Sequence record: PP301341.1 | Source: Escherichia phage UE-S5b | Reading direction: 5' to 3' (one strand) | DNA: 64,000 nucleotides | Part shown: positions 14,253 through 58,876 of the stretch, piece by piece | Layout of the letters: each line of letters opens with the position of its first letter | How positions within the stretch are numbered: the first letter of the stretch is position 1 | Position numbers and translations under genes: made by a program | The notes under the pieces: generated by a model | What the model saw: only the letters and a program-made list of their open reading frames with translations | Database searches by the model: none | What the model was told of the DNA's origin: nothing

Positions 14253-14709
14253 CAGGAGAATCCCCATGGATTTGTCATTCTTAACAGGCAACCCAACTCC
14301 ACAGCCAGCTGCTATGTCTTGGATGTCTAATAACAATCAGAACTTTAATACCCCGGCTATGAACTATAACCCAGGTGCAACTATTGGTATGGGGGCAAAT
14401 ACAGGAGTAGCCTCCCCTACTTCTTTCCTGTCTGGTTCAGCTGATCAGTTGGGATTGAATGTACCTACCTTCCAATTAGGACTGGGTGCACTTGGTTCAT
14501 TAGCTAATATCTACAGTGGTTTCCAGGCTAATAAGTTAGCCAAAGACCAGTTGAACTTTACTAAGAGTGTTACTAACACTAACCTGAATAACCAGATTAA
14601 GTCTTATAACACTGCACTGGAAGATCGTGCTCGTAGCCGTGCTACAGCAGAGAACCGTGACCAGTCTACTGCTGATGCTTATATTGCAGCTAATAAATTA
14701 ACCCGTTAA
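14245..14709 (+). CDS. virion protein, hypothetical (N4 gp52-like position)
   Basis: 154 aa ORF overlapping the previous stop by 8 nt; Asn/Gly/Ser-rich. Confidence 0.5.
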   Translation: MFNRRIPMDLSFLTGNPTPQPAAMSWMSNNNQNFNTPAMNYNPGATIGMGANTGVASPTSFLSGSADQLGLNVPTFQLGLGALGSLANIYSGFQANKLAKDQLNFTKSVTNTNLNNQIKSYNTALEDRARSRATAENRDQSTADAYIAANKLTR

Positions 14710-14721
14710 TAGGAAACCATC

Positions 14722-16686
14722 ATGGCTCAAATTACATGGCGTAATGTTGATGCACCTAACTTCTCTGGAGTAGGTGACAGCATTCGCACATTTGGTAGCA
14801 TGATAGGTAACGCCACCTCCGGCTTAAGTGATGCACTGGGTAATTTCCAGAACGCTGCCAAGCAGGAGGCTGGCAATGCCGTCATGATGAATGCTATGCA
14901 GTATCAAGATCCTACTGAGTACCGTAATGCTTTGGCATCAGGTGCACTGTTTCAGGGGGTTGACCCTTCATTGGTAAACCAGCGTACTCTCCAGAATCTG
15001 GATGAGCGAGCAGGTACACTGCTGACTCAACAAGGACAGCAGGGAACCAATGACTACATTGCATATCGCTTTGGTCGCTTAAAGGATATTAACTCAGCAC
15101 TAGATAATGCTTCTCCGGCTATTCGTTTATTGTCTGAGGCTTATCAGTCTGGTGACCAGAATCGTATTAATACTGCATTGGGTCAGACTCGTGAGGCATT
15201 ATCTACGCTCCCAGCTGACCAACAGTTAGAATTGTTAGGTAGTTTACAAGGACAGGGTAGTGCTGCTATTAATCAGGCGAGCAATCGTTTTGATTTGGGT
15301 GTTGCTCAACGTAATGATGCCGATAGTCAGGCAGCTATGGGTGTAATGGCACAGATTACCCGTGGTGCTGAGAACCCTAATGATGCCCGTCTGTTGGCAG
15401 AAGCATACAGTAAGAACCTGTCTCCAGTTGCACAGGCACGCTTGCAGGGATTACTGGCTAATGCTTACCCGGGTGTTTACGGTAATGGTGTAGGTGCTAC
15501 GTCTGCTCCTGGTACTGCTGGTACTCGTCAGGGTTCACCTTACGATGTTACTTATCAGTTTGCTGGTACATCTACTCCTATTACTCAAATGAGTATTGGT
15601 GATGTAATTAAACACCAGGATGGTATGAAATCGAACCAGGGTGCTTCCCCTGTTGGTGCATTCCAGATTAACCAAGCTACCTTGAAAGACTTTGCCCCCA
15701 AAGTTCTTGGTTCAGATTGGCAGAACCAACCTCTTTCCCCTGAGAACCAGGAGAAGATTGGTAAGGCTATTTTTGAGGCTCGTAAGAATGGTAACCTTAA
15801 AGATACCTGGGCTGCTCTTCCTAACTCTACCCCAGGTGCTTATAAGGATATGACTTGGGAACAGATTAAACCTGTTATTGCCCAAGCTGAAGTAGGGGCT
15901 GACCCATTCGCTCTGATTCAGAATAATCAAGGAAATCAGGCAGTATCCACTCTGGCTCAGGGTATGATTGGTACTCGTTCTATGCAGGATAATACCGGTA
16001 GTCTTAATACTGACTTCCTTGGTACTGTCACTGATAATACTCCAGTAGGTGAAATTGCTAACCGTCTATTAGATGGTGACTTTAAAGGTGCTGACCGTAA
16101 CTGGGTACTGAACCGACTAACTGATATTTCTCAACGTGGAAATATGTCACCAGCTATGGCTGCTGCTGTTATGCAGCGTGCACAGACTGGTGTACCGGAA
16201 GGTTACATTAGCCGTGCTATTGATGCAGTTAACCCATTCATTACCAACGAAGCCGGTAATGGTATGCGTCTTAATGACCGTTTGGTAGATCAGTTAATTG
16301 AGGGTGTACAACGTGGTGAACCACTGGAAGGCAGTGTGCGTAATCTTGGACGTGCTCAAGCTATGCAGAACATTCAGGCAGCACAGACTGCTTATGATGC
16401 TGCTGTAGCTGCACTGACAAATACTCAGAACAAGATTAACACCGGACAAACAGGACTTACTGCATTGTTACCTGCACGTCAGGAAGCTGTTACTAAAGCT
16501 GCTGCAATGCTTCAAGCTGCACAAGCCCAAGTGCAAGCAGACCCAGCTAACCTGGCTCCAAGAGGTTTTCGGTCACAGGNTAGTGTGGACAGAGCACGAG
16601 CCAAGGAAGATGAAGAACGTGCTGCACGTTANCTACGTCAGGCACANGGTTTGCCTGAGTATATGCAACCNAGACAAAATCGGTAA
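14722..16686 (+). CDS. internal virion protein with possible lytic transglycosylase-like motif (N4 gp51-like position)
   Basis: 654 aa; segment GMKSNQGASPVGAFQINQATLKDF is reminiscent of the SLT signature (S..AGA.GLMQ..T); 3' end contains several N. Confidence 0.55.
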   Translation: MAQITWRNVDAPNFSGVGDSIRTFGSMIGNATSGLSDALGNFQNAAKQEAGNAVMMNAMQYQDPTEYRNALASGALFQGVDPSLVNQRTLQNLDERAGTLLTQQGQQGTNDYIAYRFGRLKDINSALDNASPAIRLLSEAYQSGDQNRINTALGQTREALSTLPADQQLELLGSLQGQGSAAINQASNRFDLGVAQRNDADSQAAMGVMAQITRGAENPNDARLLAEAYSKNLSPVAQARLQGLLANAYPGVYGNGVGATSAPGTAGTRQGSPYDVTYQFAGTSTPITQMSIGDVIKHQDGMKSNQGASPVGAFQINQATLKDFAPKVLGSDWQNQPLSPENQEKIGKAIFEARKNGNLKDTWAALPNSTPGAYKDMTWEQIKPVIAQAEVGADPFALIQNNQGNQAVSTLAQGMIGTRSMQDNTGSLNTDFLGTVTDNTPVGEIANRLLDGDFKGADRNWVLNRLTDISQRGNMSPAMAAAVMQRAQTGVPEGYISRAIDAVNPFITNEAGNGMRLNDRLVDQLIEGVQRGEPLEGSVRNLGRAQAMQNIQAAQTAYDAAVAALTNTQNKINTGQTGLTALLPARQEAVTKAAAMLQAAQAQVQADPANLAPRGFRSQXSVDRARAKEDEERAARXLRQAXGLPEYMQXRQNR

Positions 16687-16693: not shown

Positions 16694-16717
16694 AAAAGCC
16701 CTTCGGGGCTTTTTTCT
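16694..16717 (+). terminator. rho-independent terminator upstream of vRNAP gene
   Basis: AAGCCC-TTCG-GGGCTT followed by TTTTTCTT. Confidence 0.7.
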
Positions 16718-16724
16718 TACACAG

Positions 16725-16741: not shown

Positions 16742-16762
16742 CTTCCTATATACGATATAAGT

Positions 16763-19700
16763 TTGAACAGGAAACATGCTATGTCAACATTTGACCGTCT
16801 GGCAGGTTTCGCAGACAGCATCACTAATGCTAAGCAAGTCGATGTCTCTACTGCAACCTCTCAGAAGCAAGCTGCACAAGGGCAAAGCCCTTCCCAATTA
16901 ACCCCAGAGAATGCTTACAATCTCCAAACTGGTCGTGTAGGTAATCTTGGAATCGGTGCATTCGAACCAGGTTCACTTCAGGCAGATTTCACGCAAGCCT
17001 CCCCATTAGAAATTCTTAATAAATACGGTAATGAGCAAGGTCTACAGATTCTTAATAGCCGGGCTAATGCTGCTGATGCTGTACGTCAGGACTTATCTAA
17101 ACAACGTACTAACGCAGAAGCATTTGGTGATACTCTTTCTGGTGTTGGTCTTGGTGTTGCTAATACCCTTGGGGGCATTGCTGCTCTTGGCACAGGTCTG
17201 GTCAATGATAATGCCGGGGCATCCATTGCTTCCGGTATGGATTGGCTGAATGAAGGGGTACACAATCTACAGTCTGATGCTCTGAATGCTACCCGTAAGG
17301 TTGTTCAGAATCAGAACCAGATTTCTGCACAAAAGAACCAGAAACTCTACGAAGAAGACATTAAAAATGGAGAGAGCAGTTTGGTTGCCTCTCTGTCTCG
17401 TATTGGTCGTGATGCTTTTGATTCTGTTGCTAATACGCTTGATAATGGTATGGCTGCTACTGATGGGCTGAGTGAAGGTGTTGGTTCTCTCTTTACCGGT
17501 GGTCCATTAATTCGTGGTGTATCTGCACTCGGTAAAGTAATGGTAGGTGGTGATAAAGCTGTTAAGGGTATTACCTTAGCTGCTGAGTTAGGTTCACGTC
17601 CTGCACAGGTTGCATTGTCTGCTGGTCGTGTTGCTGCACCTGCTATTGCAATTGGTGGTATGGAAGCTGGTGGTGCATACCAACAGACTGCTTCCGAAAT
17701 CATGAAGATGTCCCATCAAGAATTGGCAAGTAAGTCTCCTGTTTATCAACAGCATATCGCTGATGGTTTATCTCCTGATGAAGCACGTCGCCAAACTGCA
17801 TCTGAAACGGGTATCATTGCTGCTGGCTTAACTGCTCCGGTTGCTGCTGCTACTGGTCCTCTGGTATCCAAATTTGAACTTAACCCACTTAAGGTAGGTT
17901 CGCTGGCTGGTGCTGGTTCTAACATGCTACGTGAAACAGTAGAAGAAGGTATTCAGTCTGGTACAAGTCAGTTTGCACAGAACAAGGCAATTCAGGGTAA
18001 TGTAGATGCTAAGCGTGATTTGCTTAAAGGTGTCGGTGAGCAAGCAGGTCTTGGTGCACTCTACGGCTTCGGTAGTGCTGGTGTTGCTCAGGCTCCAGGT
18101 ACAACTGTTAAAGCTGTTGGTGCTTCTGCTGGGCCTGCTTTACGTACTACTCTGGCTGGTGCTTCTCTGGTTGGTAGTGCATTAGCAAAAGCTGCCTCTC
18201 CTATTACTAACATCCTGGTTCAGCGTGGCGAAGAAGTTGCTAAGCGTAATGAACAAGCTTCCCCTGTATCTGATGCTACGGTTAATGCTGCTGCACAAGA
18301 AGCTACTGCTCAAGCAGAACAAGCACAAGCAACTGTACAAGAAGCAGTAGATGCAATGGATATTTCTCCTGAAGAGAAAGCTGCTGCTACTCAGTATGCT
18401 GCTGACTTAACTCAGGCAATGAAATTTGACCCAGTAGAACTGGAACAAGCTAACCCAGCAATCCGTGAAGCTGTTTCTGGTTCCACTAACCGTGTTGAAG
18501 CTATTCAGAAGATGGCTGACCTGGTTAATACTGCCGAAGACCCTAACGTTCAAATGGAAGCTGCAATCCAGATGTATGACAACATCATGTCTATGGATAG
18601 CTTCATTAACCGTGATCCTGGTGCTTTAGCTAATCTGGAACAGGGTTCTCCTGCTGCTAATATTGTTGACCAGTTCTCCGGCCTGATGGCTAACGTTCAG
18701 AATACACCAAAGGTACTTCGTGCATTCCGTGCCATCCATTCTATGATTCAGGAACAGGCTGAAGCAGGTAAACTGAAAGCTACCGAAGAAGCTAACCAAG
18801 CCCAAGCAAACAACATTGCTATGGCTGCTGATATGTCTCCAGAAGTACTGGATGCAGACTCAGTGAACATGGTTCTGAAACATGCAAGTGAAGGTAAGAT
18901 TACACTGGGGAATCGTCAGCGTGCTGCCCTGCAATCTGCTGCTGCTCTATTGCAAGGAGCACGAGAATTTGACGCTAAAGCAGAAGAACTAGGCTTACGT
19001 CCTCAAGACATTGTTAGTAAACAGATTAAAACCGACGAGTCTCGTTCTAATGAAGGTCAGTACTCTGCGTTGCAACATGCTAAACGCATTCGTTCTGCGT
19101 ACAACTCTGGTAACTTCGATTTGGCTTCCGCTTACCTCGACGACTTTATGAAGTTCGCCCAGCACATGCAGAATAAGGTCGGAGCGTTGAATGAGCATCT
19201 GATTTCTGGGAATGCGGATAAGAATAAGTCTGTCCATTATCAGGCTCTTACTCCCTCCCGTGAATGGGTACGTAGTCGTACTGGTCTTGGTGTCAATCCG
19301 TATGATACCAAGTCGGTTAAGTTTGCCCAGCAAGTAGGACTGGAGGCCAAAACCGTAGCTGATATTGCTAACGCACTTGCTACGGCTTACCCGGAGCTTA
19401 ATGTTTCTCATGTGAAGGTTACTCCATTAGATTCACGTCTGGACAAGCCTGCTGCCCAGGTAGTTAAAGAGTTCCGTCAAGGTGGTCTTGATGCCACTCA
19501 GTCTCAACAGACCAATGAACCAGTGAATCAGGTTGATGAAACTCCTGCACCAGCGCAAGAGACTACTACTACTGTACAGCCTAAAGCTAAACCAGTGGTA
19601 GAAAATAAGACTGTTCCTGTTAAAGAGGCTAGTTCAAAAGCAGAAGAAGTCTCTACTACTAAGTCTGAAACAGTAGATGCTACCCTCACCAATGAGGATA

Positions 19701-22700
19701 CCACTCAAAAAGTAGCTGAAACTAAAACGGAAATGGAAACAGTTTTCCCTGTCTATAACAATGACAAGACACCGAACCAGTTCCTGAAATCATTTACCCT
19801 GCCGGAAGAACCTAAGTCTCGCACCATTGGTTCTGAATCCCCTTTGACTGATATTAAGCAAGCACTGTCTTCTACTGCACGCTTTGAAGCATTCACTCAA
19901 AAAGAAAATAACGCTCTCACAAGTGATGTGATTAAGCGTTATCAGGACTTAATGGGCTTTGGTGAAACTCTGAAGACTACTCTGTCTGATCGTCTGGCTA
20001 AGTTTCTTGCTAATAAGAACGTTGGTAAACGCTTTGCAGAAGGCACAGAGGCTAACCGTTGGGTAGGTGGTAAGTTACTTAATATCGTAGAGAAAGACGG
20101 AGACACCTTTAAGTTCAATGACCAGTTGTTAGAGACTGCTGTACTTGCTGGTCTGCAATGGCGACTGACTGCTACACAGAATGCTGCTGTTAAAGACATG
20201 AAAGATGTAGCTGCTATTACTGGAGTAGAAGCATCCTTGTTACCTGAAGGTATCCTGGCTGAATTTGAGAATGCTCAGACTCTGGTTGAAGCTACTAACT
20301 CACTGGCTCAAAAGATTGAATCTTACTGGGGATTGAATCGTAATCCTAATGCACCACTGGGTTATACCAAAGGTATTCCAATGGCAATGGCTACAGAGAT
20401 TCTGTCTTCTCTCATTGAGATGGGTGAAGTTAAAGAGTCTATGCTTGATGTGTCTGAGATTGACCCAGACTCTAATAAGACCGTCGGTCTGTATACCATT
20501 GAGAAGCTGGATGATAACGATGCCATTAACAAGTTCCCTACTGCTATCGAGGAAGCTGTTCTCGTAGAACCAGAAGAGAAAATGTACTTTGGTGATGATA
20601 TTCCTTCCGTGGCTCAAACTCAGTTACGTAACCCTGCTGTTAAGAATACCCCAGAGCAGAAAGCTGCTCTTAAAGCAGAACAGGCTACCGAGTTCCGTGT
20701 ACACATGCCGATGGTTAACTTCTATGAAGCATTAGGTCGTGACAACATTCTGGAACTGATGGGTGCTGGTACTCTTAATCCTGAACTGCTGAACGTGAAC
20801 ACTGCTAAGTCACTGGAGGGTAAAAACCTGTCAGTGTCTATGGCATATGATTCCCTGTTCGGTGTAATCAACCAGTTACAGGAACAGGAGAATGGTCTGG
20901 ATACGCCTATTCACTATGGTTACAACATGACCCGTGTAGGTCGTATGCAGATGTTAGGTAAGAACAACCCACAGTCCAGCAAGCTGGTTCGTGAAGCAAT
21001 TCTGCCAACCTTCTCTACTATCGACTTAAGTAATGAAAACAGTCAGACGTTCTCTGATTTCCAGTTAGGTCTGTCTCAGGCATTAGGTATCAAGGTTCAT
21101 AATATGTCCCGTGAAGCTATGTCTGAAAAACTGACCAAAGCTCTGGAAGGTAATTTGAAACCTGCTGTTGATATGATGGTTGAGTTTGATAAGTCCGGGC
21201 ACTTACCAGCCGATGCAGTAGATATTCTTAAGACATCTCTGGGTGGTGATAAATCATTCGTAGCTCTTATGGCTCTTATGGAGTATGCCCGTTACCTGAA
21301 CAGTGATGACCGTGCCAACTTTAATACCCCACTGTACGTTGAAGCCGATGGTGTAACCAACGGACCAATCAACGCAATGGTATTAATGACTGGTGGTAAG
21401 TTCACTTCAGACTGGATTAAGAATACTGCTAAAGGTGGTCTGTTCTTCGGTAAAGCTGGTAAGACTATGAATGAACATCGTTCACAGGATGACAGTGTTG
21501 ACCTGTATGAAGCATCTACCAATGGTCTGCAACAAGCACTTAATGAGTTACGTACTACTTACCGTAACAACGTTCCGGTTATGAACCAAATGAATCATCT
21601 TCAGAAGTTAATGGACCTGTTTATTAAAGACTTTAACCTGAATGAAGACGGTACTCTGGACCTGAAACGTGGTATCGCTAAAAACCCACTGACCATTACC
21701 ATCTATGGTTCAGGTGCTCGTGGTATTGCTGGCAAGATGGTTAGTGCAATTACTGACACCATCTATGAACGATTCAGTGATGTTCTGCAAGCTCGTGCTG
21801 CTGACCCTAGTATTTCCCCAGCTATGGCAATGTTTGGTAAGGAGGCTGCGTCTGAGGCTGATGCTCAGGCTATGCTGGATACTTTCCTTACTTCTATGGA
21901 AGCACTGACTGGTAATGTTCCAGTTATGCGTAAAGGTGAATTGTCTATTCAACAGGTAGAAGGTGCTCTGACTGGTAAGTTAGACCCTCAGAAGTTTACC
22001 GTATCGGGTAATGCCCTGAAGAACTTACAAGAGAACATGCTTCACCTGTTCGTTGAACCAATGCGTACTGGTATCCGGAATACTGTTGGGGAAGGTCTGA
22101 TGCATTCTACTGAGAACTTGCAGAAGGCTACCCAGATTCAGTCTTTGGTTCTACAAGACATGTTCCAACAAGCAGTACAGGCTAAGCTGGCAGAAAAAGA
22201 AAAAGACCCAACCTGGAAGAAGGGTGATTTCTTAACACAGAAAGAACTGAATGAAATTCAGGAATCATTGTCTCCACTGGCTCCAATGATTGAGACTGGT
22301 TCACAGACTTTCTATATTGCTGGTAGTGAGAATACTGATGTTGCTAACCAGGTACTGGCTACCAACTTAGATGACCGTATGCGTGTGCCAATGAGCATCT
22401 ATGCTCCTTCTCAGGCAGGCGTTGCAGGTATTCCATTTATGACCATTGGCACTGGTGATGGCATGATGATGCAGACCCTTTCTACTATGAAAGGTGCTCC
22501 GAAGAATACCCTGAAAATCTTTGATGGTATGAACATTGGTATCAACAACATCACTGATGCAAGTCGTAAAGCTAACGAGGCTGTATACACTTCCTGGCAG
22601 GGTAACCCTATCAAGAATGTTTATGAGTCTTTTACTAAGTTCATGAAGAACGTAGACTTCAGCAAACTATCTGATGAAACCAAACAGGCTATCGCTAAAT

Positions 22701-25700
22701 CTGCTCTGGAATATGACCAGCGTGAAGGTGCTACCGATGACCTGTTACGTGTTGGTGCTGAACAGATTGAACGTAACCTGCGTAATATTGCTCTGGGTGT
22801 AGATATTCGTCACAAAGTAATGAACCAGGTACAGACTACTGTTGACCAGATGGCTGCTGTTGGTGCTCCTTATGTGAACAACGGTAAAATCTCTCTGGAA
22901 GGTCTGACCGTAGACCAACAAGTAGCTAAGCTAAATGAACTGTTCGATGCTGAATTAAACAAACGTCGTGATGCAGTACGTGCTGCTAAAGTAGAACCAG
23001 TGAAAGAAGTGCCAGCAATGGAACAGGTTGGTCGTGTACTGAAGTCTGGTGTACGCCTACTGTCTAATACTGCTATCTCTAAGCTGGCTAAAGAGATGTC
23101 TCCGGAACAGCAAGCAGTACTGAAAGAAGTACAGAAATCCCTTGCTGCTAAAGACTATAAGGTTGTTTACGGTACACCTTCCCAACTGGATGCTTATGCT
23201 ATTGAGAAGAATATTACTCGCCCAGCACCAGAAGATATTGAAGCTGCTGAAGCTGGTAATGCGTATGGTTGGACTAACTTTGAAGATAAGACCATCTACT
23301 TAGTTACCCCTTCCTTAGAGACTCTGGTTCATGAATTGGTGCATGCTTCTACTTTTGAATCTGTACTGGCTCACTATGAGGGTACTCCTAATGAAGCGGT
23401 CCAGAACATTGAAGACCTGATGAACCAGTTCCGTGCTCTGGATGTTAAGGATGAATCCCCGGCAGTTCGGGAAGCATATGCAGATGCTCTTAATACTATT
23501 AACGGTCATTTATCTAATGGCTTTATTGAGCCAGCAATGGCTAAAGCTGCTGCACTGAATGAGTACATGGCATGGGGTTTAACCAACCGTGAACTGATTA
23601 GTAAGCAGAAGAAAACCACTGCACTTAAGACTATGGTTCAGGCTGTATATGAAGCAATTAAACGTCTGGTATTCGGGCGTAAGAAAGCACCAGCTAATGC
23701 AGATGATATGTTCTCTGGCTTACTGTTTAACTCGTCCGTAGTTATGCGTGGGCAAGCTCCTACTGCTGCTGTAGCCAAAGATACTACTCTGTTCCATAAC
23801 AAAACGTATGGTGACAATACTCGTCTGGAAGAGCTAGGGAAAACCTTCGATAAACTGATTACTGACTACATTGGTTCTGAACCAGTACAGCAAGTAATTC
23901 GTAAAGGTAAGTTCTCTGATGCAGTGGTTAATGCGACTAAAGTAACTCGTGATGTTCAGGCTCATGGCTTCACTATGAATATGCAGGAACAACGTCTCTT
24001 TACTAACATTGTTGCTGCTCTGGCTACTGAGGCTGCTATTAATCCTGCTGCTCTGGCTCGTGCGCAGGAATACTACACACATGTTACTAAGAACCTGACC
24101 GTTGAGTCATTCATGNCTGACCCAGATAGTACTAACCCTGCTGACCGTTACTATGCACAGCAGAAGTTCGATACCATCATGGGTGCTAACAACATTGAGT
24201 TTGATTCACAAGGTCGTTCCTCCTTACTGCCTACCTTTATTGGTCTGGCGATGGTAAGTGAAGAGGTACGTAAAGTGCTGGCTGATATTCCAGTTATGAA
24301 AGTAGACAAGAAATCTGGCAATACCGCTGATGCAATGCTGACTAACATCGGTACTGCTGCAATGGCTAGTCTGAATGCTCGTGTAGCAGGAGATACTAAA
24401 GCTACCAACGTACAGGAAGGTATGGATGCACTGGCTCAGACAATCATGCAGACCAGTCTTAATGCACAATCCTTCTATGATTCCGTTGCTACTCCTACGG
24501 GTAATGCTATTGATCGTGCTAACCAGTATCTGGTGGACTCTATTGATGTACTGTCTACCCGTGCTTTAGAAGGTGCTCGTGAAGTTGCAGCTAATACCAA
24601 GAACCCGTTGGTTAAAGGTGCTGCCCATGCTGCACAATTAATAGCTGCTATTGCTACAGAGAAGAATGGTGCAATCGTAGCCGAAGGTGTTATGGCTGCA
24701 ATGAACCAGGGTAAGGTATGGCAACCTTTCCATGACCTGGTTAATGACTTAACTGGTCGTACTAAGAGCAATGCTTCTGTATATGATTTGATTAAAGCAG
24801 TGCGTGCACAGGTACAGGCTGACCGTCAACAGTTCCGTGAACATCTGCCCACCACTATTGCATCTAAGTTCAGCCGTAAGCTTACTAATGATGAGTGGAA
24901 AGCAATGCATACCGGTATGGGTAAAACCGACTTAGCTGTTCTGCGTGACACTATGTCTCTGGGTGAAATTCGTGACTTGCTGACTGACCAAAAGATTGTT
25001 GACCGTGAAGTGAATAAGCTGGAAGCAGATTTGCAGAAACAAGCAGGACGTAACTGGCCTTTGATTAGCCGTAAATCTAAGCAACTGGCTCAGTACATGA
25101 TTAATGGCACAGTTGGTAATAACTTGCTGCGTAATGCTACTGCAATCTCTCGTATGCTGGGTGAACGACAGGCTGCACGTTCTACTGTAGACGTAGCTCA
25201 ACTGGATAAACTGATTACTCTGTATGCACTGGAAGCAATGAGTAAGACTGACCGTGAGATGTTATCTTCACTGGCTCAATCAGAGATTGAAGGCATGGAC
25301 TTCGCTACTTCTTATCTGGTTGGTCAGCGTAAAGATGAAATGGCTAAAGCCAAATCTGATACTCGTGCAACTCTGAACCAGTACAAAGGGTATATTCCTG
25401 GTGAGACTAAACAGGGTGTTAACTTGATTGTTGCTGAAGATAGTCAGTTTGCTGATTTGATTGAGAAGTCCTATGTACGTCTGGGTACTTATCAGGGTAG
25501 CTCTGCTAATCGTGGTCCAGCACGTAGCTACTACTTTGCACCGGTACAGGCACAGGCTCCATTCTCGCAAGGTATCTTACAGAACGTTCGCAATACTGCT
25601 GGTGGTGTAGACCTTGGTACAGGCTTTACGATGGGTACAATGGTAGCTGGTCGTATCACTGACAAGCCTTCTGTAGACCGTATCACTAAAGCACTGGCTC

Positions 25701-27133
25701 GCGGTGAACGTGGTAATGAACCACTGCTGCCTGTATATGATGATAAAGGCAATGTGGTTGCTTATGAGCAATCTATTGACCCTAACATGCTGAAGCACAT
25801 TGAGGGTGAGAACCATCTCGCTCGTGCAATCGGTGTATGGCGTGGTCGTCAGGTAGAGGAAGCTAAGGCTCAGCGTTTCAACGATATGCTGATTGAGAAC
25901 CTGCATAGCATGTATAAAAACGACATTAAAATGTCTGCCTCTAACAAGTCACAGTACGTTAACCTTCTTGGTTCTAAACTGGACCCAGTAACTGCTGATG
26001 CCCTTAAGCTGATGAACAGTGAAACTCGTCAGAAAGCAGAAAGTCTGTTTGGTCCTGGTGAGTTGTGGGTACGTCGTGACATGCTGAATGATGCACTGGG
26101 CTATCGTGCAGCTTCCGTAGGTGATGCCTGGTCTGGCAATTCTCGTTGGTCACCAGAAACACTGGATACCTTCAAGAAAGCTATGTTGGGTGTATTCGGC
26201 AACCGTGCTTATAAGTATGTAATGGGTGGTGAGAACCTGGTTCAAAACTTAGTTAAAGAAGCCAAAACTCTGATTGTAGTTAAGTCAGTAGTTGTTCCTG
26301 CTGTTAACTTCCTGGCTAACCTTTACCAGATGGTTGGTCGTGGTGTACCTGTTAAGAACATTGCTAAGAGCATTCCACAGAAGACTGCTGAGATTAACCA
26401 GTACCTGAAATCTCGTCTGCGTCAGGTAGATGCAGAAGCAGANTTACGTGCAGCTACTAACCCGAACCAGATTCGTAAGCTTAAGGCTGAAATTCAGTCC
26501 ATCACTGATAGTCATAAGCGTATGAGTATCTGGCCTCTGTTAGAAGCTGGTGAGTTTTCTTCAATTGCAGATGCTGGTATTGGACGAGATGACATCCTGA
26601 TTACTGAAGGTAAACTTCACGAATACATGGATAAACTGGCTGATAAGTTACCTAAGTCTGTACGTAATGCTGGACGTTATGCCCTTATCACCAAGGATAC
26701 TGCTTTATTCCAGGGTATCCAGAAGACGGTTGAGTACTCTGACTTTATTGCTAAAGCAATCATCTATGATGATTTGACTCAGCGTAAAGGTAAGACTCGT
26801 GAAGAAGCACTTGGACGTGTAACGGAAGAGTTCATTAACTATGACCGTCTGCCTGGTCGCTTCCGTGGGTATATGGAAAGTGTTGGTCTTATGTGGTTCT
26901 ATAACTTTAAGATTCGTTCTGCAAAAATTGCAGTATCCATGATTCGTAACAACCCGGTACACGCAGCTATGGCTATGTTGGCTCCAACTCCTACCATGTT
27001 TGGTAATGTTGGTTTACCTATTCAGGACAACATCTTCAGTATTGCTGCACAAGGCAATCTCGGTTACTCCTGGGGCTTCGGTCAGGGACTTCGTGCCCAT
27101 AACCTTAACCCTTGGCTCAATCTAGCTAACTAA
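16763..27133 (+). CDS. virion-encapsidated RNA polymerase (vRNAP, N4 gp50-like)
   Basis: Single 3456 aa ORF, the hallmark giant protein of N4-like phages; last gene of the late operon; contains T7-RNAP-like motif B-like segment (PLTITIYGSG). Three isolated N. Confidence 0.9.
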   Translation: MNRKHAMSTFDRLAGFADSITNAKQVDVSTATSQKQAAQGQSPSQLTPENAYNLQTGRVGNLGIGAFEPGSLQADFTQASPLEILNKYGNEQGLQILNSRANAADAVRQDLSKQRTNAEAFGDTLSGVGLGVANTLGGIAALGTGLVNDNAGASIASGMDWLNEGVHNLQSDALNATRKVVQNQNQISAQKNQKLYEEDIKNGESSLVASLSRIGRDAFDSVANTLDNGMAATDGLSEGVGSLFTGGPLIRGVSALGKVMVGGDKAVKGITLAAELGSRPAQVALSAGRVAAPAIAIGGMEAGGAYQQTASEIMKMSHQELASKSPVYQQHIADGLSPDEARRQTASETGIIAAGLTAPVAAATGPLVSKFELNPLKVGSLAGAGSNMLRETVEEGIQSGTSQFAQNKAIQGNVDAKRDLLKGVGEQAGLGALYGFGSAGVAQAPGTTVKAVGASAGPALRTTLAGASLVGSALAKAASPITNILVQRGEEVAKRNEQASPVSDATVNAAAQEATAQAEQAQATVQEAVDAMDISPEEKAAATQYAADLTQAMKFDPVELEQANPAIREAVSGSTNRVEAIQKMADLVNTAEDPNVQMEAAIQMYDNIMSMDSFINRDPGALANLEQGSPAANIVDQFSGLMANVQNTPKVLRAFRAIHSMIQEQAEAGKLKATEEANQAQANNIAMAADMSPEVLDADSVNMVLKHASEGKITLGNRQRAALQSAAALLQGAREFDAKAEELGLRPQDIVSKQIKTDESRSNEGQYSALQHAKRIRSAYNSGNFDLASAYLDDFMKFAQHMQNKVGALNEHLISGNADKNKSVHYQALTPSREWVRSRTGLGVNPYDTKSVKFAQQVGLEAKTVADIANALATAYPELNVSHVKVTPLDSRLDKPAAQVVKEFRQGGLDATQSQQTNEPVNQVDETPAPAQETTTTVQPKAKPVVENKTVPVKEASSKAEEVSTTKSETVDATLTNEDTTQKVAETKTEMETVFPVYNNDKTPNQFLKSFTLPEEPKSRTIGSESPLTDIKQALSSTARFEAFTQKENNALTSDVIKRYQDLMGFGETLKTTLSDRLAKFLANKNVGKRFAEGTEANRWVGGKLLNIVEKDGDTFKFNDQLLETAVLAGLQWRLTATQNAAVKDMKDVAAITGVEASLLPEGILAEFENAQTLVEATNSLAQKIESYWGLNRNPNAPLGYTKGIPMAMATEILSSLIEMGEVKESMLDVSEIDPDSNKTVGLYTIEKLDDNDAINKFPTAIEEAVLVEPEEKMYFGDDIPSVAQTQLRNPAVKNTPEQKAALKAEQATEFRVHMPMVNFYEALGRDNILELMGAGTLNPELLNVNTAKSLEGKNLSVSMAYDSLFGVINQLQEQENGLDTPIHYGYNMTRVGRMQMLGKNNPQSSKLVREAILPTFSTIDLSNENSQTFSDFQLGLSQALGIKVHNMSREAMSEKLTKALEGNLKPAVDMMVEFDKSGHLPADAVDILKTSLGGDKSFVALMALMEYARYLNSDDRANFNTPLYVEADGVTNGPINAMVLMTGGKFTSDWIKNTAKGGLFFGKAGKTMNEHRSQDDSVDLYEASTNGLQQALNELRTTYRNNVPVMNQMNHLQKLMDLFIKDFNLNEDGTLDLKRGIAKNPLTITIYGSGARGIAGKMVSAITDTIYERFSDVLQARAADPSISPAMAMFGKEAASEADAQAMLDTFLTSMEALTGNVPVMRKGELSIQQVEGALTGKLDPQKFTVSGNALKNLQENMLHLFVEPMRTGIRNTVGEGLMHSTENLQKATQIQSLVLQDMFQQAVQAKLAEKEKDPTWKKGDFLTQKELNEIQESLSPLAPMIETGSQTFYIAGSENTDVANQVLATNLDDRMRVPMSIYAPSQAGVAGIPFMTIGTGDGMMMQTLSTMKGAPKNTLKIFDGMNIGINNITDASRKANEAVYTSWQGNPIKNVYESFTKFMKNVDFSKLSDETKQAIAKSALEYDQREGATDDLLRVGAEQIERNLRNIALGVDIRHKVMNQVQTTVDQMAAVGAPYVNNGKISLEGLTVDQQVAKLNELFDAELNKRRDAVRAAKVEPVKEVPAMEQVGRVLKSGVRLLSNTAISKLAKEMSPEQQAVLKEVQKSLAAKDYKVVYGTPSQLDAYAIEKNITRPAPEDIEAAEAGNAYGWTNFEDKTIYLVTPSLETLVHELVHASTFESVLAHYEGTPNEAVQNIEDLMNQFRALDVKDESPAVREAYADALNTINGHLSNGFIEPAMAKAAALNEYMAWGLTNRELISKQKKTTALKTMVQAVYEAIKRLVFGRKKAPANADDMFSGLLFNSSVVMRGQAPTAAVAKDTTLFHNKTYGDNTRLEELGKTFDKLITDYIGSEPVQQVIRKGKFSDAVVNATKVTRDVQAHGFTMNMQEQRLFTNIVAALATEAAINPAALARAQEYYTHVTKNLTVESFMXDPDSTNPADRYYAQQKFDTIMGANNIEFDSQGRSSLLPTFIGLAMVSEEVRKVLADIPVMKVDKKSGNTADAMLTNIGTAAMASLNARVAGDTKATNVQEGMDALAQTIMQTSLNAQSFYDSVATPTGNAIDRANQYLVDSIDVLSTRALEGAREVAANTKNPLVKGAAHAAQLIAAIATEKNGAIVAEGVMAAMNQGKVWQPFHDLVNDLTGRTKSNASVYDLIKAVRAQVQADRQQFREHLPTTIASKFSRKLTNDEWKAMHTGMGKTDLAVLRDTMSLGEIRDLLTDQKIVDREVNKLEADLQKQAGRNWPLISRKSKQLAQYMINGTVGNNLLRNATAISRMLGERQAARSTVDVAQLDKLITLYALEAMSKTDREMLSSLAQSEIEGMDFATSYLVGQRKDEMAKAKSDTRATLNQYKGYIPGETKQGVNLIVAEDSQFADLIEKSYVRLGTYQGSSANRGPARSYYFAPVQAQAPFSQGILQNVRNTAGGVDLGTGFTMGTMVAGRITDKPSVDRITKALARGERGNEPLLPVYDDKGNVVAYEQSIDPNMLKHIEGENHLARAIGVWRGRQVEEAKAQRFNDMLIENLHSMYKNDIKMSASNKSQYVNLLGSKLDPVTADALKLMNSETRQKAESLFGPGELWVRRDMLNDALGYRAASVGDAWSGNSRWSPETLDTFKKAMLGVFGNRAYKYVMGGENLVQNLVKEAKTLIVVKSVVVPAVNFLANLYQMVGRGVPVKNIAKSIPQKTAEINQYLKSRLRQVDAEAXLRAATNPNQIRKLKAEIQSITDSHKRMSIWPLLEAGEFSSIADAGIGRDDILITEGKLHEYMDKLADKLPKSVRNAGRYALITKDTALFQGIQKTVEYSDFIAKAIIYDDLTQRKGKTREEALGRVTEEFINYDRLPGRFRGYMESVGLMWFYNFKIRSAKIAVSMIRNNPVHAAMAMLAPTPTMFGNVGLPIQDNIFSIAAQGNLGYSWGFGQGLRAHNLNPWLNLAN

Positions 27134-27135: not shown

Positions 27136-27170
27136 GAAAAAGCCCCTCATTAGAGGGGCTTTAATTTTTA
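27136..27170. terminator. bidirectional rho-independent terminator at the convergent junction
   Basis: AGCCCCTC-ATTA-GAGGGGCT flanked by an A-run upstream and T-rich downstream; serves the vRNAP gene (+) and the DUF2829 gene (-). Confidence 0.7.
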
Positions 27171-27671
27171 CTAAACTAACACCCAGTCTTCAGCTAATAT
27201 ATCTGATTGGGATGGGACCCAAGGCATAAACTGGTCATCAACAGTTTTGATTCCTAACCATGGACGAGGTTTCAATTCATCAGCAAGTCCTGGACGCTCT
27301 AAGCTACTGCTATTCCATTCTTGAGCAGCAACGTACTCAATGTACATTCCTTTACCATTCCAGCCTTTACGGGCTAGTTTGAAGCCGGATTTGAGAAGCT
27401 CTACTGCATGACCAAAGGTGCAACCTTTTTCTACGTCATGGTACGCAGTTTCAAATGCAGATTTAGGTGACCAGCTAATATAGCCACGGAACTGAGGATG
27501 GTTAGACTTAGAGTCTGGGTACTCTACTAAGTAACCTTCTTCTAATGGGTCTTCATTAGCAGGTACATCCCAGCCACGAAGTTTGCAGTATGTTTCTTTG
27601 TTCATTCGGAAACCATTTACACACTTGGTTCCGATATAATTGGTAAAATGGACTTTAATTTCTTCTGACAT
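27171..27671 (-). CDS. DUF2829-like (Tad2-like) domain protein, candidate anti-defence protein
   Basis: C-terminal half FGHAVELLKSGFKLARKGWNGKGMYI...PWLGIKTVDDQFMPWVPSQSDILAEDWVLV matches the DUF2829 pattern as I recall it; ATG at 27671 preceded by GAGGT, whereas the track start at 27698 is GTG inside a hairpin. Confidence 0.6.
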   Translation of the reverse strand: MSEEIKVHFTNYIGTKCVNGFRMNKETYCKLRGWDVPANEDPLEEGYLVEYPDSKSNHPQFRGYISWSPKSAFETAYHDVEKGCTFGHAVELLKSGFKLARKGWNGKGMYIEYVAAQEWNSSSLERPGLADELKPRPWLGIKTVDDQFMPWVPSQSDILAEDWVLV

Positions 27672-27686
27672 AACTACCTCAAATGA

Positions 27687-27720
27687 GAAAGCCCTCACTA
27701 GGAGGGCTTGTTTTGTTTTG
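27687..27720. terminator. GC hairpin plus U-tract (strong in + orientation, weaker in - orientation)
   Basis: AAGCCCTC-ACTA-GGAGGGCTT followed by GTTTTGTTTTGG on +; lies between the gp49-like gene and the DUF2829 gene. Confidence 0.5.
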
Positions 27721-31137: not shown

Positions 31138-31692
31138 TTACGCCTTTATTAAATTAAGAAGGTTTTGGAAAGCTGGGAGATTTACACCAGCGTGGATTGC
31201 ACCGATTGCATCTGCTAAGTGCTCATTCTTATTCAGAAGTTTACCTTTTTTATCTGTGAGCCAGTTGGCTTCTGGATAGATAGCATGGGCAGCACGAATC
31301 ATCGTGTCTTTGGATGCAGTTTTATCACCGACCAGTGCAAGTTTATTTTCAATTGGGGATACTTCAAAGATTGGACAACCCAATGCACGAAATGCACCAA
31401 TTAATCCTACGCATACGCCATAGGATTTCATACCGTTAGCAGACTGAGAGCCTACTGGTACTTCTACGAATACTGCTTTAGCAGACCGTAACCATTCTTC
31501 ACAACCAAGAAACAAATCGTGAGCGGCTTGTATATCTTTGGAGTTGGTTCGAACTTGTTTGTTGTGGTCAACTTCAGTTTGAACCAGTTTAAGTTCGACC
31601 TGCTCGAAGACGCCGGACTCAATGTCCAGCATCCCACGAGCTAAACCCCAATTGCGGAGACTAATGTCTGCACCAACAATTGGGATTTTCAT
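31138..31692 (-). CDS. RuvC-like Holliday junction resolvase
   Basis: N-terminal MKIPIVGADISLRNWGLARG and C-terminal EHLADAIGAIHAGV resemble the RuvC/RNase H-fold resolvase pattern. Confidence 0.6.
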   Translation of the reverse strand: MKIPIVGADISLRNWGLARGMLDIESGVFEQVELKLVQTEVDHNKQVRTNSKDIQAAHDLFLGCEEWLRSAKAVFVEVPVGSQSANGMKSYGVCVGLIGAFRALGCPIFEVSPIENKLALVGDKTASKDTMIRAAHAIYPEANWLTDKKGKLLNKNEHLADAIGAIHAGVNLPAFQNLLNLIKA

Positions 31693-32489
31693 TAACGTTT
31701 ACCGAACAGTGATTTACCACCAGCAGGAGCAGTACCCGTGCCAGCACTTGGTTTAGGAGGCAAGCCACCTTTGCCATTACCACCAGCAGAACCCTTGGTC
31801 TTATCACGGGTTTTACCCTTGTTCTTTTCTAACCATGCTGCATAAAATACAGCCAGTTCTGGGGTCAGTTCTTTCTCAGCCTTCTCTGCTTCCTGAGCCT
31901 CGACGACTGTGACCAGCAGTTCCGGGTGAAACACTTTCTGAATCTCGTTTACTTCACGGGTTTCACCGGAATCAACGTAACCGTTGTCACCCTTAACCTG
32001 CTTAGATTCCAGAACCTTTTCCAGGGCGAAGGTAACAGTCTGACCAACCAGGTCTACTGGAACCATGACAGATTTATTAACTTCTGCTTTAGCATCGAAG
32101 TCATAGACTTTAACAATCTTCTCTTCGAAGTCAGCTTCAGGCAGTTCCGTACCGGTAGCCATCAGCATCATGTCGTTAATGACGGTGTATCCCGGCAGGA
32201 AGTATTCTTTACCGTTCTTCTCGTAAGTAGGCTTATTGCCTTTAGAATTACCAGAAGTGAAGTACACCTGTGAACGGAACTCGCCAGCATCATTACCATC
32301 AGAACCTTTCAGGTTTTCAATGATTAACTGCATCCAGTCTGCACCAGAGTCAGCTTTACCTACGTAAGCTACTTTTACAGTACCGGTGTAGATATCTGAC
32401 TCCTTTGCACCGAAGCCACCACCACCAAGGGAGTCTTTTACAGCTTCAACGTTTTTGGTTTTTTCTTTCAAGTTACTGAACAGTGACAT
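31692..32489 (-). CDS. single-stranded DNA-binding protein (N4 gp45-like)
   Basis: 265 aa; Gly-rich termini; position after the primase and ATPase genes matches N4 SSB; assignment mainly by synteny and size. Confidence 0.55.
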   Translation of the reverse strand: MSLFSNLKEKTKNVEAVKDSLGGGGFGAKESDIYTGTVKVAYVGKADSGADWMQLIIENLKGSDGNDAGEFRSQVYFTSGNSKGNKPTYEKNGKEYFLPGYTVINDMMLMATGTELPEADFEEKIVKVYDFDAKAEVNKSVMVPVDLVGQTVTFALEKVLESKQVKGDNGYVDSGETREVNEIQKVFHPELLVTVVEAQEAEKAEKELTPELAVFYAAWLEKNKGKTRDKTKGSAGGNGKGGLPPKPSAGTGTAPAGGKSLFGKR

Positions 32490-56497: not shown

Positions 56498-57715
56498 TTA
56501 ACTTAATGCATAATCTGTTTCTAGAATGTCTTGCCAGAGGCTGTCATCCAGCTTACCAGCAGAGAACTCTTGTCCCAGTACTTGAGACAGAATGAAGCCC
56601 AGTAAGTCACTCTTAGCAATGTCAGACAGAATCTGATTGTACTGACGACGCAGGTCATTACCATAGTTAGGGTGGCAACGGAAGCAATCATGTACAGTCA
56701 TTACAGGGAATGGTTTCTTAGGCATAGTGTCGATCATATCTGCTACTACTTGACGGTCTACCAATGCAATAGTATTCGGGTCAAGGAAGTCTAGGATAGA
56801 TAGCGACAGGAATCCTGACCTTTCATAATGATTCCAGATTTCCATAGTCTTCTCTTGGTTCCCCTCAATAACGGGGTATTCACTTGGCCCGATATCGCAC
56901 AGTTCCCGTACATAGGCAACCAGTTTAGGGTCGAAGTTACAACGACGCAGCATCTCACGTACTACCATCCCATCAATAGAGTGAGTGATGTTAGCAGAGA
57001 GCATACGGGTCTTCTCTTCAGTACCCTGAACCATACGAGTGATGTCAAATGGTTTACCCAAGAAGTTAACAGTCTGTACTTCAAGAACCATGACTTTAAT
57101 GACAGCATGGAAGTTGTCAGGGAGTACCCATATGTAACGGTTAGCATCCGGGTTACCACATTGCAGTAAGAACTTGTTAAGTGCCCAAGGACCACTTGCA
57201 ACTGTTTCCATTACATTTTCAAAAGTCTTGAGACGGATACCTTCCCCGAATACTTCTTTAGGTTTGGCTTCTGAACCGTAGAATGCAGTCATAACTGCCT
57301 GCTTGGTATCACTACGTTTAATACGGGATGCTTCACCAAGGATGTCCAGCATCTTGTGATATATAACTGTATAAGCATCACGTCGTAATGGCTTACCATT
57401 CTCTCCCATGTAATTAACTACGTTACACAGTTCAGCAGCAGAGCGGTCACCAGTCAGGCAGGCCAGTAACTGCAAGCCTGATGATGTAGCATCCAGGGCT
57501 ACGGCATATCCGATAGGCTTACCTGCTTTCATATCTTTCCATGCGTTTATGCCAGCATAGAATAGTGCAGATTCCTCAGCTTCATCTACCAGATTAAGCA
57601 AGTTAGCTTCATTCTCATCGAACCAAGCAATACGCTCATTCCAGGTCTTTTTATCCAGACCATAGTTATTGGCGATATCTACTTTCAGGTATTCACGAGC
57701 GGTTAACAGTTGCAT
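56498..57715 (-). CDS. RNA polymerase II large (catalytic) subunit, T7-like single-subunit RNAP C-terminal half (N4 gp16-like)
   Basis: 405 aa; T7 RNAP motif A-like ALDATSSGLQ, motif B-like K..VMTAFYGS, motif C-like VHDCF. Confidence 0.8.
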   Translation of the reverse strand: MQLLTAREYLKVDIANNYGLDKKTWNERIAWFDENEANLLNLVDEAEESALFYAGINAWKDMKAGKPIGYAVALDATSSGLQLLACLTGDRSAAELCNVVNYMGENGKPLRRDAYTVIYHKMLDILGEASRIKRSDTKQAVMTAFYGSEAKPKEVFGEGIRLKTFENVMETVASGPWALNKFLLQCGNPDANRYIWVLPDNFHAVIKVMVLEVQTVNFLGKPFDITRMVQGTEEKTRMLSANITHSIDGMVVREMLRRCNFDPKLVAYVRELCDIGPSEYPVIEGNQEKTMEIWNHYERSGFLSLSILDFLDPNTIALVDRQVVADMIDTMPKKPFPVMTVHDCFRCHPNYGNDLRRQYNQILSDIAKSDLLGFILSQVLGQEFSAGKLDDSLWQDILETDYALS

Positions 57716-58869: not shown

Positions 58870-58876
58870 CTATTAC

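Follow-up and report, generated by a model that had tools for sequence, protein, structure and literature searches.

The occurrence of a single reading frame of 10.4 kb in a coliphage raises the question of what so large a gene encodes and how it is transcribed. The window analyzed here is the whole 64,000-nucleotide stretch from Escherichia phage UE-S5b (PP301341.1), a Gamaleyavirus (Schitoviridae), and the initial annotation had assigned the frame to a giant virion RNA polymerase (vRNAP) of 3456 residues. The frame is indeed uninterrupted: in the program-made list of open reading frames it begins with a TTG codon at 16763 and extends on the + strand to 27133, 3456 aa without a stop, a run expected by chance at ~10^-88 from the base composition of the window. 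Two N bases within it (24116 and 26443) give two X residues in the protein, and a pseudogene or assembly artefact was ruled out by the intact frame and by near-identical copies in dozens of independent genomes. The length required correction. As judged from the sequence, the true start is almost certainly the in-frame ATG at 16781 instead of the TTG at 16763, because this ATG has AGGAAA ahead of it and gives an N-terminus (MSTFDRLAGF...) that matches that of N4 gp50 (MSVFDRLAGF) and the CDS starts in the UE-S5a and PhAPEC7 records. The protein would thus have 3450 aa rather than 3456, a length inside the range of the nine family members compared (3331-3595 aa).

16781..27133, + strand: vRNAP gene (N4 gp50 orthologue), 3450 codons, stop at 27131-27133; the mechanical ORF runs from TTG 16763

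The match to the N4 enzyme covers the entire protein. The comparison with N4 gp50 that the initial annotation had proposed gave an end-to-end match, in which residues 1-3449 align collinearly with residues 1-3499 of the full-length N4 PDB chains (phmmer, E = 0). All four vRNAP-specific Pfam domains (PF21624, PF21894, PF21867 and PF21769, comprising the plug insertion, a helical domain and vRNAP domains) were matched at E values of 1e-28 to 5e-101, with scores that far exceed the gathering thresholds, and PHROG 2206, 'virion RNA polymerase', spans residues 25-3449 (E = 0). In the full-length alignment the two proteins are 66.9% identical overall, and that of UE-S5b is 50 residues shorter, nearly all of the difference coming from two linkers and loop regions. 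The Pfam, PHROG and PDB matches together with the full-length alignment support the assignment to the gp50 family, and we put at roughly 97% the probability that 16781..27133 encodes the N4 gp50 orthologue of a Gamaleyavirus coliphage, with the N4 mechanism carried over by orthology; none of the results spoke against this reading. N4 gp50 is a virion-encapsidated, T7-like single-subunit RNA polymerase whose mechanism has been described (PMC4496689, PMC13434306, PMC13492108). The identity of the gene as a giant vRNAP is already known, this being the long-studied hallmark protein of N4-like phages.

The likeness to N4 gp50 (PDB 2PO4, 3C2P, 3Q0A, 9PNQ/9PNR, 11GP) comprises the three-domain architecture, the catalytic motifs, the plug, the -11 recognition element, the specificity-loop residues, an HExxH motif in the C-terminal subdomain C1 and the D2012-R2279 clasp residues, and it extends outside the gene to its location after gp53-gp52-gp51, its flanking terminators and three hairpin promoters at equivalent sites. 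Within the protein, the domains and motifs are placed as follows.

16781..19483, + strand: N-terminal domain (NTD), aa 1-901 (N4 1-906), 60% identical to N4
19484..19732, + strand: low-complexity linker 1, aa 902-984; shortened by 18 residues relative to N4, 49% identity
19733..22993, + strand: polymerase domain (mini-vRNAP), aa 985-2071, 71% identical to N4
20015-20062, + strand: -11 recognition element, K1079/R1084/W1094
20927-20944, + strand: T/DxxGR motif, MTRVGR
21050-21295, + strand: plug
21335-21364, + strand: motif A, YVEADGVTNG (D1523)
21668-21709, + strand: motif B, RGIAKNPLTITIYG
22373-22384, + strand: specificity loop, DRMR
22514-22531, + strand: motif C, KIFDGM (D1915)
22994..23023, + strand: linker 2, aa 2072-2081; N4 has 8 residues more
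23024..27130, + strand: C-terminal domain (CTD), aa 2082-3450, 69% identical to N4

In the alignment with N4, divergence and indels are both greatest in linker 1. The hydrophobic segments of the NTD sit at the same places as in N4, in which this domain is implicated in membrane association and in injecting the first part of the genome (PMC13434306, PMC13492108); the N4 CTD is needed for encapsidation and autoinhibits the polymerase (PMC13434306, PMC13492108, PMC4496689). A tblastn search with the CTD matched 466 phage records, and among those listed (58-80 kb genomes) all were N4-like and none lay outside Schitoviridae. The vRNAP also matches PHROG 19273, a 4846-position profile whose function is annotated as unknown.

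Alignment with the mini-vRNAP motifs, also proposed in the initial annotation, showed the catalytic motifs to be intact. In mini-vRNAP numbering, the catalytic residues R424, D559, R666, K670, Y678 and D951 are identical to those of N4, and five of them are invariant in nine vRNAPs from seven subfamilies, the sixth, Y678, being F in Pa2. The promoter-contact residues K114, R119, W129, K849, K850, D901 and R904 are likewise identical to N4; across the same nine proteins their conservation is confined to Enquatrovirinae, with partial retention in phiAxp-3, a pattern expected of lineage-specific promoters. The sole exception among the residues checked is K267 of N4 mini-vRNAP, which is N in UE-S5b, with the neighboring Lys retained. 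The right-hand fold and the T/DxxGR, A, B and C motifs have been established for N4 vRNAP (PMC4496689) and are shared with the T7 and mitochondrial single-subunit RNA polymerases. Relative to the T7 enzyme, the vRNAP is about four times larger and carries an NTD and a CTD; it would, moreover, be packaged and ejected, and the promoter that it recognizes would be a hairpin of single-stranded DNA instead of a duplex.

The initial annotation had invoked hairpin promoters of the N4 type, and three sites with N4-type sequence were found in the early region. The split RNAPII genes it had named are also present, so that the phage encodes two distinct RNA polymerases.

63902..63914, - strand: predicted early promoter P1; template = + strand, CATGC-GGA-GCATG
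63220..63232, - strand: predicted early promoter P2; template GACGC-GGA-GCGTC, whose stem can reach 7 bp
58858..58870, - strand: predicted early promoter P3; template GCTGC-GGA-GCAGC
58005..58823, - strand: RNAPII small subunit, N4 gp15 homologue, 272 aa
56498..57715, - strand: RNAPII large subunit, N4 gp16 homologue, 405 aa, Pfam RNA_pol

Within the early region all three hairpins, which have the form CCAWAR-NNN-GCGGAGC-NNN, fall on the template strand, against a chance expectation of 0.27, and they are stable as ssDNA (z = -2.5 to -4.2). They are upstream of the gp1, gp2 and gp15 homologues, at positions equivalent to N4 P1-P3, with inferred +1 positions at 63897 for P1 (leftward into the gp1 homologue, 63535..63858), at 63215 for P2 (upstream of the gp2 homologue, 62722..63204) and at 58853 for P3 (immediately 5′ of the RNAPII small-subunit gene). 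Relative to N4, the stems of P1 and P2 are changed on both arms yet stay complementary, a compensatory pattern, and the P1 loop is GGA where that of N4 is GAA. P2 has exactly the sequence published for P2 of KP8, and the P3 hairpin is the same as that 5′ of N4 gp15. A further GCGGAGC, at 49787, was rejected as a fourth hairpin promoter since it lacks both the stem and the CCAWAR context.

In UE-S5b, as in N4 and representatives of six further subfamilies, the genes stand in the order gp53-gp52-gp51-vRNAP and a convergent replication block comes next. Encoded elsewhere in the window is a homologue of N4SSB, the protein that in N4 directs host RNA polymerase to late genes.

14266..14709, + strand: gp52 homologue, 147 aa, 60% identical to N4 gp52
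14722..16686, + strand: gp51 homologue, 654 aa, 50% identical to N4 gp51
31692..32489, - strand: N4SSB (gp45) homologue, 265 aa, 58% identical, C-terminal KSLFGK tail included

In N4, gp51 and gp52 are ejection proteins that make an outer-membrane complex and a periplasmic tunnel, respectively, and vRNAP has a second role, absent from the initial annotation, as the largest ejection protein (PMC13434306). That the UE-S5b protein has been kept mainly in this structural capacity, as an analogue of T7 gp16 whose polymerase is no longer functional in the lineage, would be in keeping with the ejection role documented for N4 and DEV (PMC13434306, PMC11445570) and with the position of the gene directly after two other ejection-protein genes. 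However, the catalytic and promoter-contact residues checked are intact except for K267, the polymerase domain at 71% identity is the best-conserved third of the protein, and three cognate hairpin promoters are maintained through compensatory stem changes. The ejection and polymerase roles are also complementary rather than exclusive, and we consider loss of the polymerase function very improbable. Still less credible is that the gene encodes something other than a vRNAP. The only support comes from product names in GenBank/RefSeq records (UE-M6, PBM-2/3, U1G, ST4, phi G17, IME11), which read 'DNA polymerase', 'translation initiation factor 2' or 'hypothetical protein', whereas Pfam, PHROGs and PDB all give vRNAP across the full length and the genome has, at another place, its own annotated DNA polymerase I gene. 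The first two names are refuted by the Pfam, PDB and PHROG matches, and several public records thus misname the gene.

With the protein taken as a working vRNAP, we infer by orthology that packaging, injection, rifampicin-resistant early transcription and expression of late genes by the host RNA polymerase also occur in UE-S5b. The gene would be expressed late, and a few copies of its product would be packed in the capsid through the CTD, which may also keep the polymerase autoinhibited. At infection, vRNAP would leave through the tail behind channel-forming gp51 and gp52, its NTD would associate with the inner membrane, and the leading genome end, with P1 about 100 bp from the terminus, would enter the cell. 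Host gyrase and SSB would then extrude the template-strand hairpin, to which the polymerase domain would bind by stacking W1094 on the central loop G and by base contacts from K1079, R1084, D1865 and R1868. Transcription from P1, P2 and P3 would supply the early genes, among which are those for the RNAPII subunits and for cofactors of these, and may draw further genome into the cell; RNAPII would go on to transcribe the middle genes, and the N4SSB homologue would then recruit host sigma70 RNA polymerase to the + strand late cluster that holds the vRNAP gene. In N4, early transcription is rifampicin resistant and gyrase dependent (PMC4496689), and packaging and ejection of vRNAP have been demonstrated (PMC13434306). 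In KP8, too, the virions have been found to contain vRNAP (PMC6950046). An 'RNA polymerase' appears in the LC-MS/MS data from UE-phage particles (PMC11927229), but this is weak evidence of specific packaging, because many non-structural proteins, some of them clearly so (DNA polymerase and RNAP1/2), were detected too.

How the vRNAP gene itself is transcribed bears on its earlier description as the terminal gene of the late operon, flanked by terminators. Both terminators are real, and a conserved block lies between the upstream one and the start codon.

16694..16719, + strand: upstream intrinsic terminator, conserved in N4 and PhAPEC7, in the gap that separates the gp51 homologue from the vRNAP gene
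16747..16774, + strand: conserved block TATATACGATATAAGTTTGAACAGGAAA, with a candidate -10-like TATAAG (16756-16761) and RBS AGGAAA (16769-16774)
27139..27162, both strands: downstream intrinsic terminator, bidirectional, 10-bp stem, where the vRNAP gene and a gp49-like gene converge

The downstream stem folds equally on each strand (-18.1 and -18.2 kcal/mol), so that the terminator serves both of the gene blocks that converge on it. The vRNAP gene is the final + strand gene, the annotated-gene ORFs of at least 90 aa from 27171 on all being on the - strand, as is every gene annotated after vRNAP in the corresponding region of UE-S5a. The terminal position therefore stands, but a single operon is doubtful, given the conserved terminator that intervenes upstream. 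This terminator consists of AAAAGCCC-TTCG-GGGCTTTT followed by TTCTT and, in N4, PhAPEC7 and UE-S5b, is followed by a conserved GATATAAGTTTG block, the remaining intergenic spacer having diverged. Because the terminator is conserved, the vRNAP gene would be reached by read-through or from a late promoter of its own.

We give slightly less than even odds to the stronger proposal that the gene is a separate unit, in which most late transcripts would end at 16694-16719 and vRNAP would be expressed either by low-level read-through (attenuation) or from a weak, N4SSB-dependent promoter within the GATATAAGTTTG block. Such a unit is favored by the stability of the upstream hairpin as RNA (-10.7 kcal/mol, z = -3.8) with a T-run after it, and by the retention of the terminator and of a 12-nt block 3′ of it in UE-S5b, PhAPEC7 and N4 despite the diverged spacer. 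The TATAAG lies 19 nt 5′ of the start codon, and its poor -35 match fits an activator-dependent promoter. More terminator-like hairpins after the major capsid gene and the next gene suggest graded expression along the cluster, and the copy number of N4 vRNAP is low, at 4 ± 1 per virion (PMC13434306). However, a sigma70 consensus scan gave no promoter at the conserved block, promoter-like sites in the region being fewer than in shuffles, and the block overlaps the ribosome-binding region, which could account for its conservation. A shared late-promoter motif was also considered and rejected: the conserved 10-mer upstream of vRNAP, CGATATAAGT, is unique in the window, and its matches at up to two mismatches are rarer there than in shuffles (34 versus 55). 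No repeated late-promoter motif was found in the window, and no late-promoter model resulted. Whichever route is taken, the conserved terminator probably limits transcription into the vRNAP gene, which would fit about four copies per virion as against hundreds of capsid protein.

The first subdomain of the CTD is the sole item with discovery potential.

23024..23758, + strand: CTD subdomain C1, aa 2082-2326; HExxH motif HELVH at 23330-23344

The HELVH motif, E2180, E2211 and E2261 are invariant in nine vRNAPs from seven subfamilies, and the C1 module shows moderate similarity, by structural model and by profile, to the HExxH module of the tetrameric ejection protein of ΦM1 (gp48, PDB 8VB2). 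The likeness is limited to this one module, and the tetrameric ejection proteins of Autographiviridae (T7 gp16 class) lack a polymerase domain. The C1 model was built on a three-sequence alignment, since a search of a 5.8-billion-protein set gave just two fragments; a Pfam scan of C1 at E values up to 10 returned only noise, and phmmer against PDB returned only vRNAP chains. T7 gp16 itself was rejected as a C1 homologue, its HERLH at residue 559 standing in a non-matching context in which the C1 HMM gives no alignment. The link between C1 and ejection proteins was not found in two N4 vRNAP structure papers or the ΦM1 paper, which note only the existence of the motif. We tentatively suggest, while considering it somewhat doubtful, that C1 and the HExxH module found in tetrameric ejection proteins (T7 gp16 class) of ΦM1-like Autographiviridae are homologous. 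In that case vRNAP and the largest ejection protein of T7-like podophages would share ancestry and not be mere analogues, vRNAP having gained a polymerase by insertion or fusion, and the invariant HExxH...E...E signature would mark a conserved, possibly zincin-type, activity in ejection or packaging. The resemblance, if confirmed, would thus bear on how a polymerase joined the DNA-ejection machine.

The gene itself offers little that is new, as relatives with the same interpretation were published in 2025: those of the Gamaleyavirus phages UE-S5a, UE-M3 and UE-M6 are 99.5% identical at the nucleotide level over the whole length (PMC11927229). Re-examination adds the corrected start codon and the location of the three hairpin promoters and of the conserved upstream terminator. 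The UE-S5b and UE-S5a proteins differ at 12 amino acids, besides the two X residues from N bases, and share the start codon and the neighboring genes. Outside the vRNAP gene the UE-S5b window is mosaic relative to UE-S5a; between the RNAPII subunit genes, the place of the 168-aa HNH endonuclease of UE-S5a is taken in UE-S5b by a 79-aa ORF, as it is in PBM-2 and PBM-3.

The giant frame at 16763..27133 (+) is unbroken, as the initial annotation stated. At the base composition of the window, stops are expected about every 17.5 codons, and a run of 3456 stop-free codons would arise by chance with a probability of ~10^-88. The profile evidence bears out the proposed N4-type virion RNA polymerase (vRNAP, the orthologue of N4 gp50): all four vRNAP-specific Pfam domains (N4_RNAP_helical, vRNAP_dom_2, vRNAP_dom, and vRNAP_plug) were recovered with E values of 1e-28 to 5e-101, PHROGs assigned residues 25-3449 to "virion RNA polymerase," and phmmer against PDB sequences returned the full-length N4 vRNAP chains 11GP and 9PNQ/9PNR (E = 0, residues 1-3449). 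Overall identity to N4 gp50 in a MAFFT alignment is 66.9%, with 60% in the NTD, 49% in linker 1, 71% in the polymerase domain, and 69% in the CTD, and the two linkers and a few loops account for nearly all of the 50 residues by which the lengths differ. The observation is thus confirmed and the vRNAP reading supported for a feature that is already known; what we add is only corrections and a side lead in C1, the first CTD subdomain.

The nearest relatives of the gene, at 99.5% nucleotide identity, are in Escherichia phages UE-S5a, UE-M3, and UE-M6, and some 50 further records are 92-99% identical; the closest record is assigned to Schitoviridae, Enquatrovirinae, Gamaleyavirus. Several public records misname the gene, as "DNA polymerase" (UE-M6, PBM-2, PBM-3, U1G, and ST4), "translation initiation factor 2" (phi G17), or "hypothetical protein" (IME11, JX880034). 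The protein differs from that of UE-S5a by 12 substitutions and two X residues, the latter from N bases at 24116 and 26443. The whole window holds 64 N bases in small scattered clusters (e.g., 3562-3628, 7440-7509, and 49047-49089); five lie at 16580-16693, just 5′ of the gene, one of them adjoining the upstream terminator stem. A secondary PHROG match in CTD-C2 (aa 2653-3397, ~24737-26971) to phrog_19273, a profile of length 4846 (E 2e-22), may point to still larger relatives whose C-terminal part is similar.

The length of 3456 aa given initially holds for the mechanical reading frame, in which TTG 16763 is merely the first allowed start past the preceding stop. The protein itself is 3450 aa, because the in-frame ATG 16781 is preceded at proper spacing by AGGAAA, the N-terminus read from it (MSTFDRLAGFADS...) matches that of N4 gp50 (MSVFDRLAGFADS...), and the UE-S5a and PhAPEC7 records annotate the vRNAP start at the equivalent position.

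Alignment of the central domain with the mini-vRNAP motifs, which had been proposed as a check, showed the catalytic residues to be the same as in N4 (mini-vRNAP numbering; offset 997, checked against the N4 sequence): R424 (T/DxxGR), D559 (motif A), R666/K670/Y678 (motif B), and D951 (motif C). Also the same are K114, R119, W129, K849, K850, D901, and R904, listed as N4 promoter contacts (PMC4496689), and the D2012-R2279 clasp residues and HExxH motif described for N4 (PMC13434306). In a nine-way alignment spanning seven subfamilies (N4, KP8, phiAxp-3, Rexella, RHEph16, vBDshPR2C, FSL SP-058, Pa2, and UE-S5b; identity 20-70%), R424, D559, R666, K670, and D951 are invariant in 9/9 and Y678 is replaced by F in Pa2, while the promoter contacts are kept only among close relatives. 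Such a combination would be expected of proteins that are all active polymerases with lineage-specific promoters.

At its right end (63860-64000) the window lines up with N4 genome nucleotide 1 (TGGCTGGGGCTACACCC... versus TGGTGGGGCTACACCCC...); the early region is therefore present, and this end is the physical leading end of the genome. A scan for hairpins with a perfect 5-bp stem, a 3-nt loop, and GC closing pairs found three GGA-loop hairpins on the + strand, the template for leftward transcription.

Predicted early hairpin promoters (+ strand, template sequence)
63902-63914, P1, CATGC-GGA-GCATG
63220-63232, P2, GACGC-GGA-GCGTC
58858-58870, P3, GCTGC-GGA-GCAGC

P1-P3 account for every one of the three occurrences of the extended pattern CCAWAR-NNN-GCGRAGC, for which 0.27 would be expected. 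P1 lies ~100 bp from the genome terminus, and the promoters stand upstream of the gp1, gp2, and gp15 homologues, placed as in N4. Compared with the N4 stems GTTGC/GCAAC (P1) and GAAGC/GCTTC (P2), P1 and P2 differ in both arms yet still pair, whereas the P3 hairpin is identical to that of N4; P2 equals the published KP8 P2. Folding energies of the three as single-stranded DNA are -4.7 to -6.9 kcal/mol (z = -2.5 to -4.2). The register with N4 predicts transcription starts at 63897, 63215, and 58853, in each case the first G of TGGA.

Genes for the companion system are also present, including both subunits of the split second polymerase, RNAPII, that the initial annotation reported.

Companion genes
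58005..58823 (-), RNAPII small subunit
56498..57715 (-), RNAPII large subunit
31692..32489 (-), N4SSB homologue, 58% identical, C-terminal tail included

On the same strand 5′ of the vRNAP gene lie homologues of gp53, gp52 (60% identical to N4), and gp51 (50%); the last two of these are in N4 the smaller pair of ejection proteins (PMC13434306). N4 shares this gene order, ending in vRNAP and facing a convergent replication block, as do phages representing six other subfamilies. The gp51 homologue, 14722..16686 (+), shares with N4 gp51 a strongly conserved central GASPVGA(F/Y)QINQ(A/D)TLKDFAPKV, a stretch without an assigned Pfam family.

The most likely working scheme is that of N4, transferred by orthology (PMC4496689, PMC13434306, PMC13492108). 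The vRNAP gene would be expressed late, and a few copies of the protein would be packed through the CTD, which would also lock the polymerase in an autoinhibited state. Upon infection, vRNAP would be ejected behind gp51 and gp52 and its NTD would associate with the membrane; as the P1-bearing leading end of the genome enters, gyrase and host SSB would extrude the hairpin, to which the polymerase domain would bind, transcribing the early genes while drawing the DNA in. RNAPII would then transcribe the middle genes, and N4SSB would recruit host RNAP to the late cluster. Every sequence element needed by these N4-type steps is present and intact in the window.

Terminators on both sides of the gene, as initially claimed, are real and are annotated at the same places in PhAPEC7. 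The upstream one (16694-16719) has an 8-bp GC-cored stem, a TTCG loop, and a T-run (-10.7 kcal/mol, z = -3.8). The downstream one (27139-27162, 10-bp stem) is bidirectional, since it lies between convergent blocks and folds as well on one strand as on the other (-18.1 and -18.2 kcal/mol). The description of vRNAP as the terminal gene of the late operon stands in that it is the last gene before the convergent block, but is too simple in that a conserved terminator separates it from the gp51 homologue. This terminator is conserved in N4, PhAPEC7, and UE-S5b, as is a 12-nt block (GATATAAGTTTG) downstream of it, while the spacer between has diverged. The gene may accordingly be a separately controlled unit, reached by read-through or from a promoter of its own, a reading to which we give just short of an even chance. 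TATAAG at 16756-16761 could be a candidate -10 element with a poor -35; a consensus promoter scan did not call it, and the motif of the conserved block has no repeat elsewhere. Most likely, expression is graded along the late cluster and the vRNAP gene is transcribed least, which the 4 +/- 1 vRNAP copies per N4 virion (PMC13434306) would fit. Terminator-like GC-rich hairpins with T-runs at ~9990-10020 and ~10700-10750 (+), downstream of the major capsid gene and of the gene that follows it, suggest stepwise attenuation along the cluster.

The side lead concerns C1 (23024..23758), of which PMC13434306 says only that it "possesses a conserved HExxH motif" and in which PMC13492108 does not mention the motif. 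The HExxH (H2184, E2185, H2188; HELVH at 23330-23344) is invariant in 9/9 vRNAPs, as are E2180, E2211, M2214, and E2261. Sequence searches with C1 alone returned vRNAPs and nothing else, and a large protein search gave two fragments only. Residues 2082-2330 were modelled with AlphaFold2 from the resulting shallow alignment (mean pLDDT 74.8, pTM 0.70); in this model, which is of middling confidence, the HExxH helix follows three short strands. In structure, the predicted fold best matches the ΦM1 tetrameric ejection protein (gp48, PDB 8VB2; T7 gp16 class), which has an HExxH at the aligned position; this 1263-aa protein has only one HExxH (HEAAH 385-389), and the C1 HMM aligns exactly there with a score reached by 1/2000 shuffles. 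A profile-to-profile comparison by hhalign of eight vRNAP C1 regions with the corresponding region of six Corkvirinae/Slopekvirinae phages gave a probability of 81.5% (E 1.1e-5) over 43 columns that take in the HExxH helix and the one after it, and a third block was lined up by eye (NEFMAW versus HEFVAQ). T7 gp16 itself did not match C1, and BFVD yielded only weak matches beyond vRNAPs. Three moderate, partly independent signals, none decisive, point to a shared HExxH module; homology of C1 to the module of ΦM1-type ejection proteins is a tentative proposal at somewhat less than even odds.

Between the RNAPII subunit genes lies a 79-aa ORF (phrog_5444; 57773..58012 (-)), as in PBM-2 and PBM-3 (99.5%), whereas UE-S5a, otherwise the nearest relative, carries a 168-aa HNH homing endonuclease there and N4 has only 47 bp. 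The split polymerase thus contains a hot spot for insertions, and the insert shows that the window combines UE-type and PBM-type genomes in a mosaic. Directly downstream of the vRNAP gene, 27171..27698 (-) encodes the N4 gp49 homologue (DUF2829), which matches Pfam Tad2-like (Thoeris anti-defence 2; PF11195) at E 3e-24 and is possibly an anti-Thoeris sponge conserved in N4-like phages. A tRNA-Ile (anticodon AAT) and an adjoining tRNA-like gene occupy 28619-28694 and 28701-28776 (-); the latter has an irregular anticodon loop (ARAGORN) and is tRNA-OTHER in UE-S5a. In the tailspike region (1-2321 (+)), a K5 lyase is annotated in the nearest relative, with an endosialidase before it in UE-S5a. 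Matches of this region to many unrelated phage genera (Vectrevirus, Kayfunavirus, and Erwinia phages) indicate horizontally exchanged capsule depolymerases.
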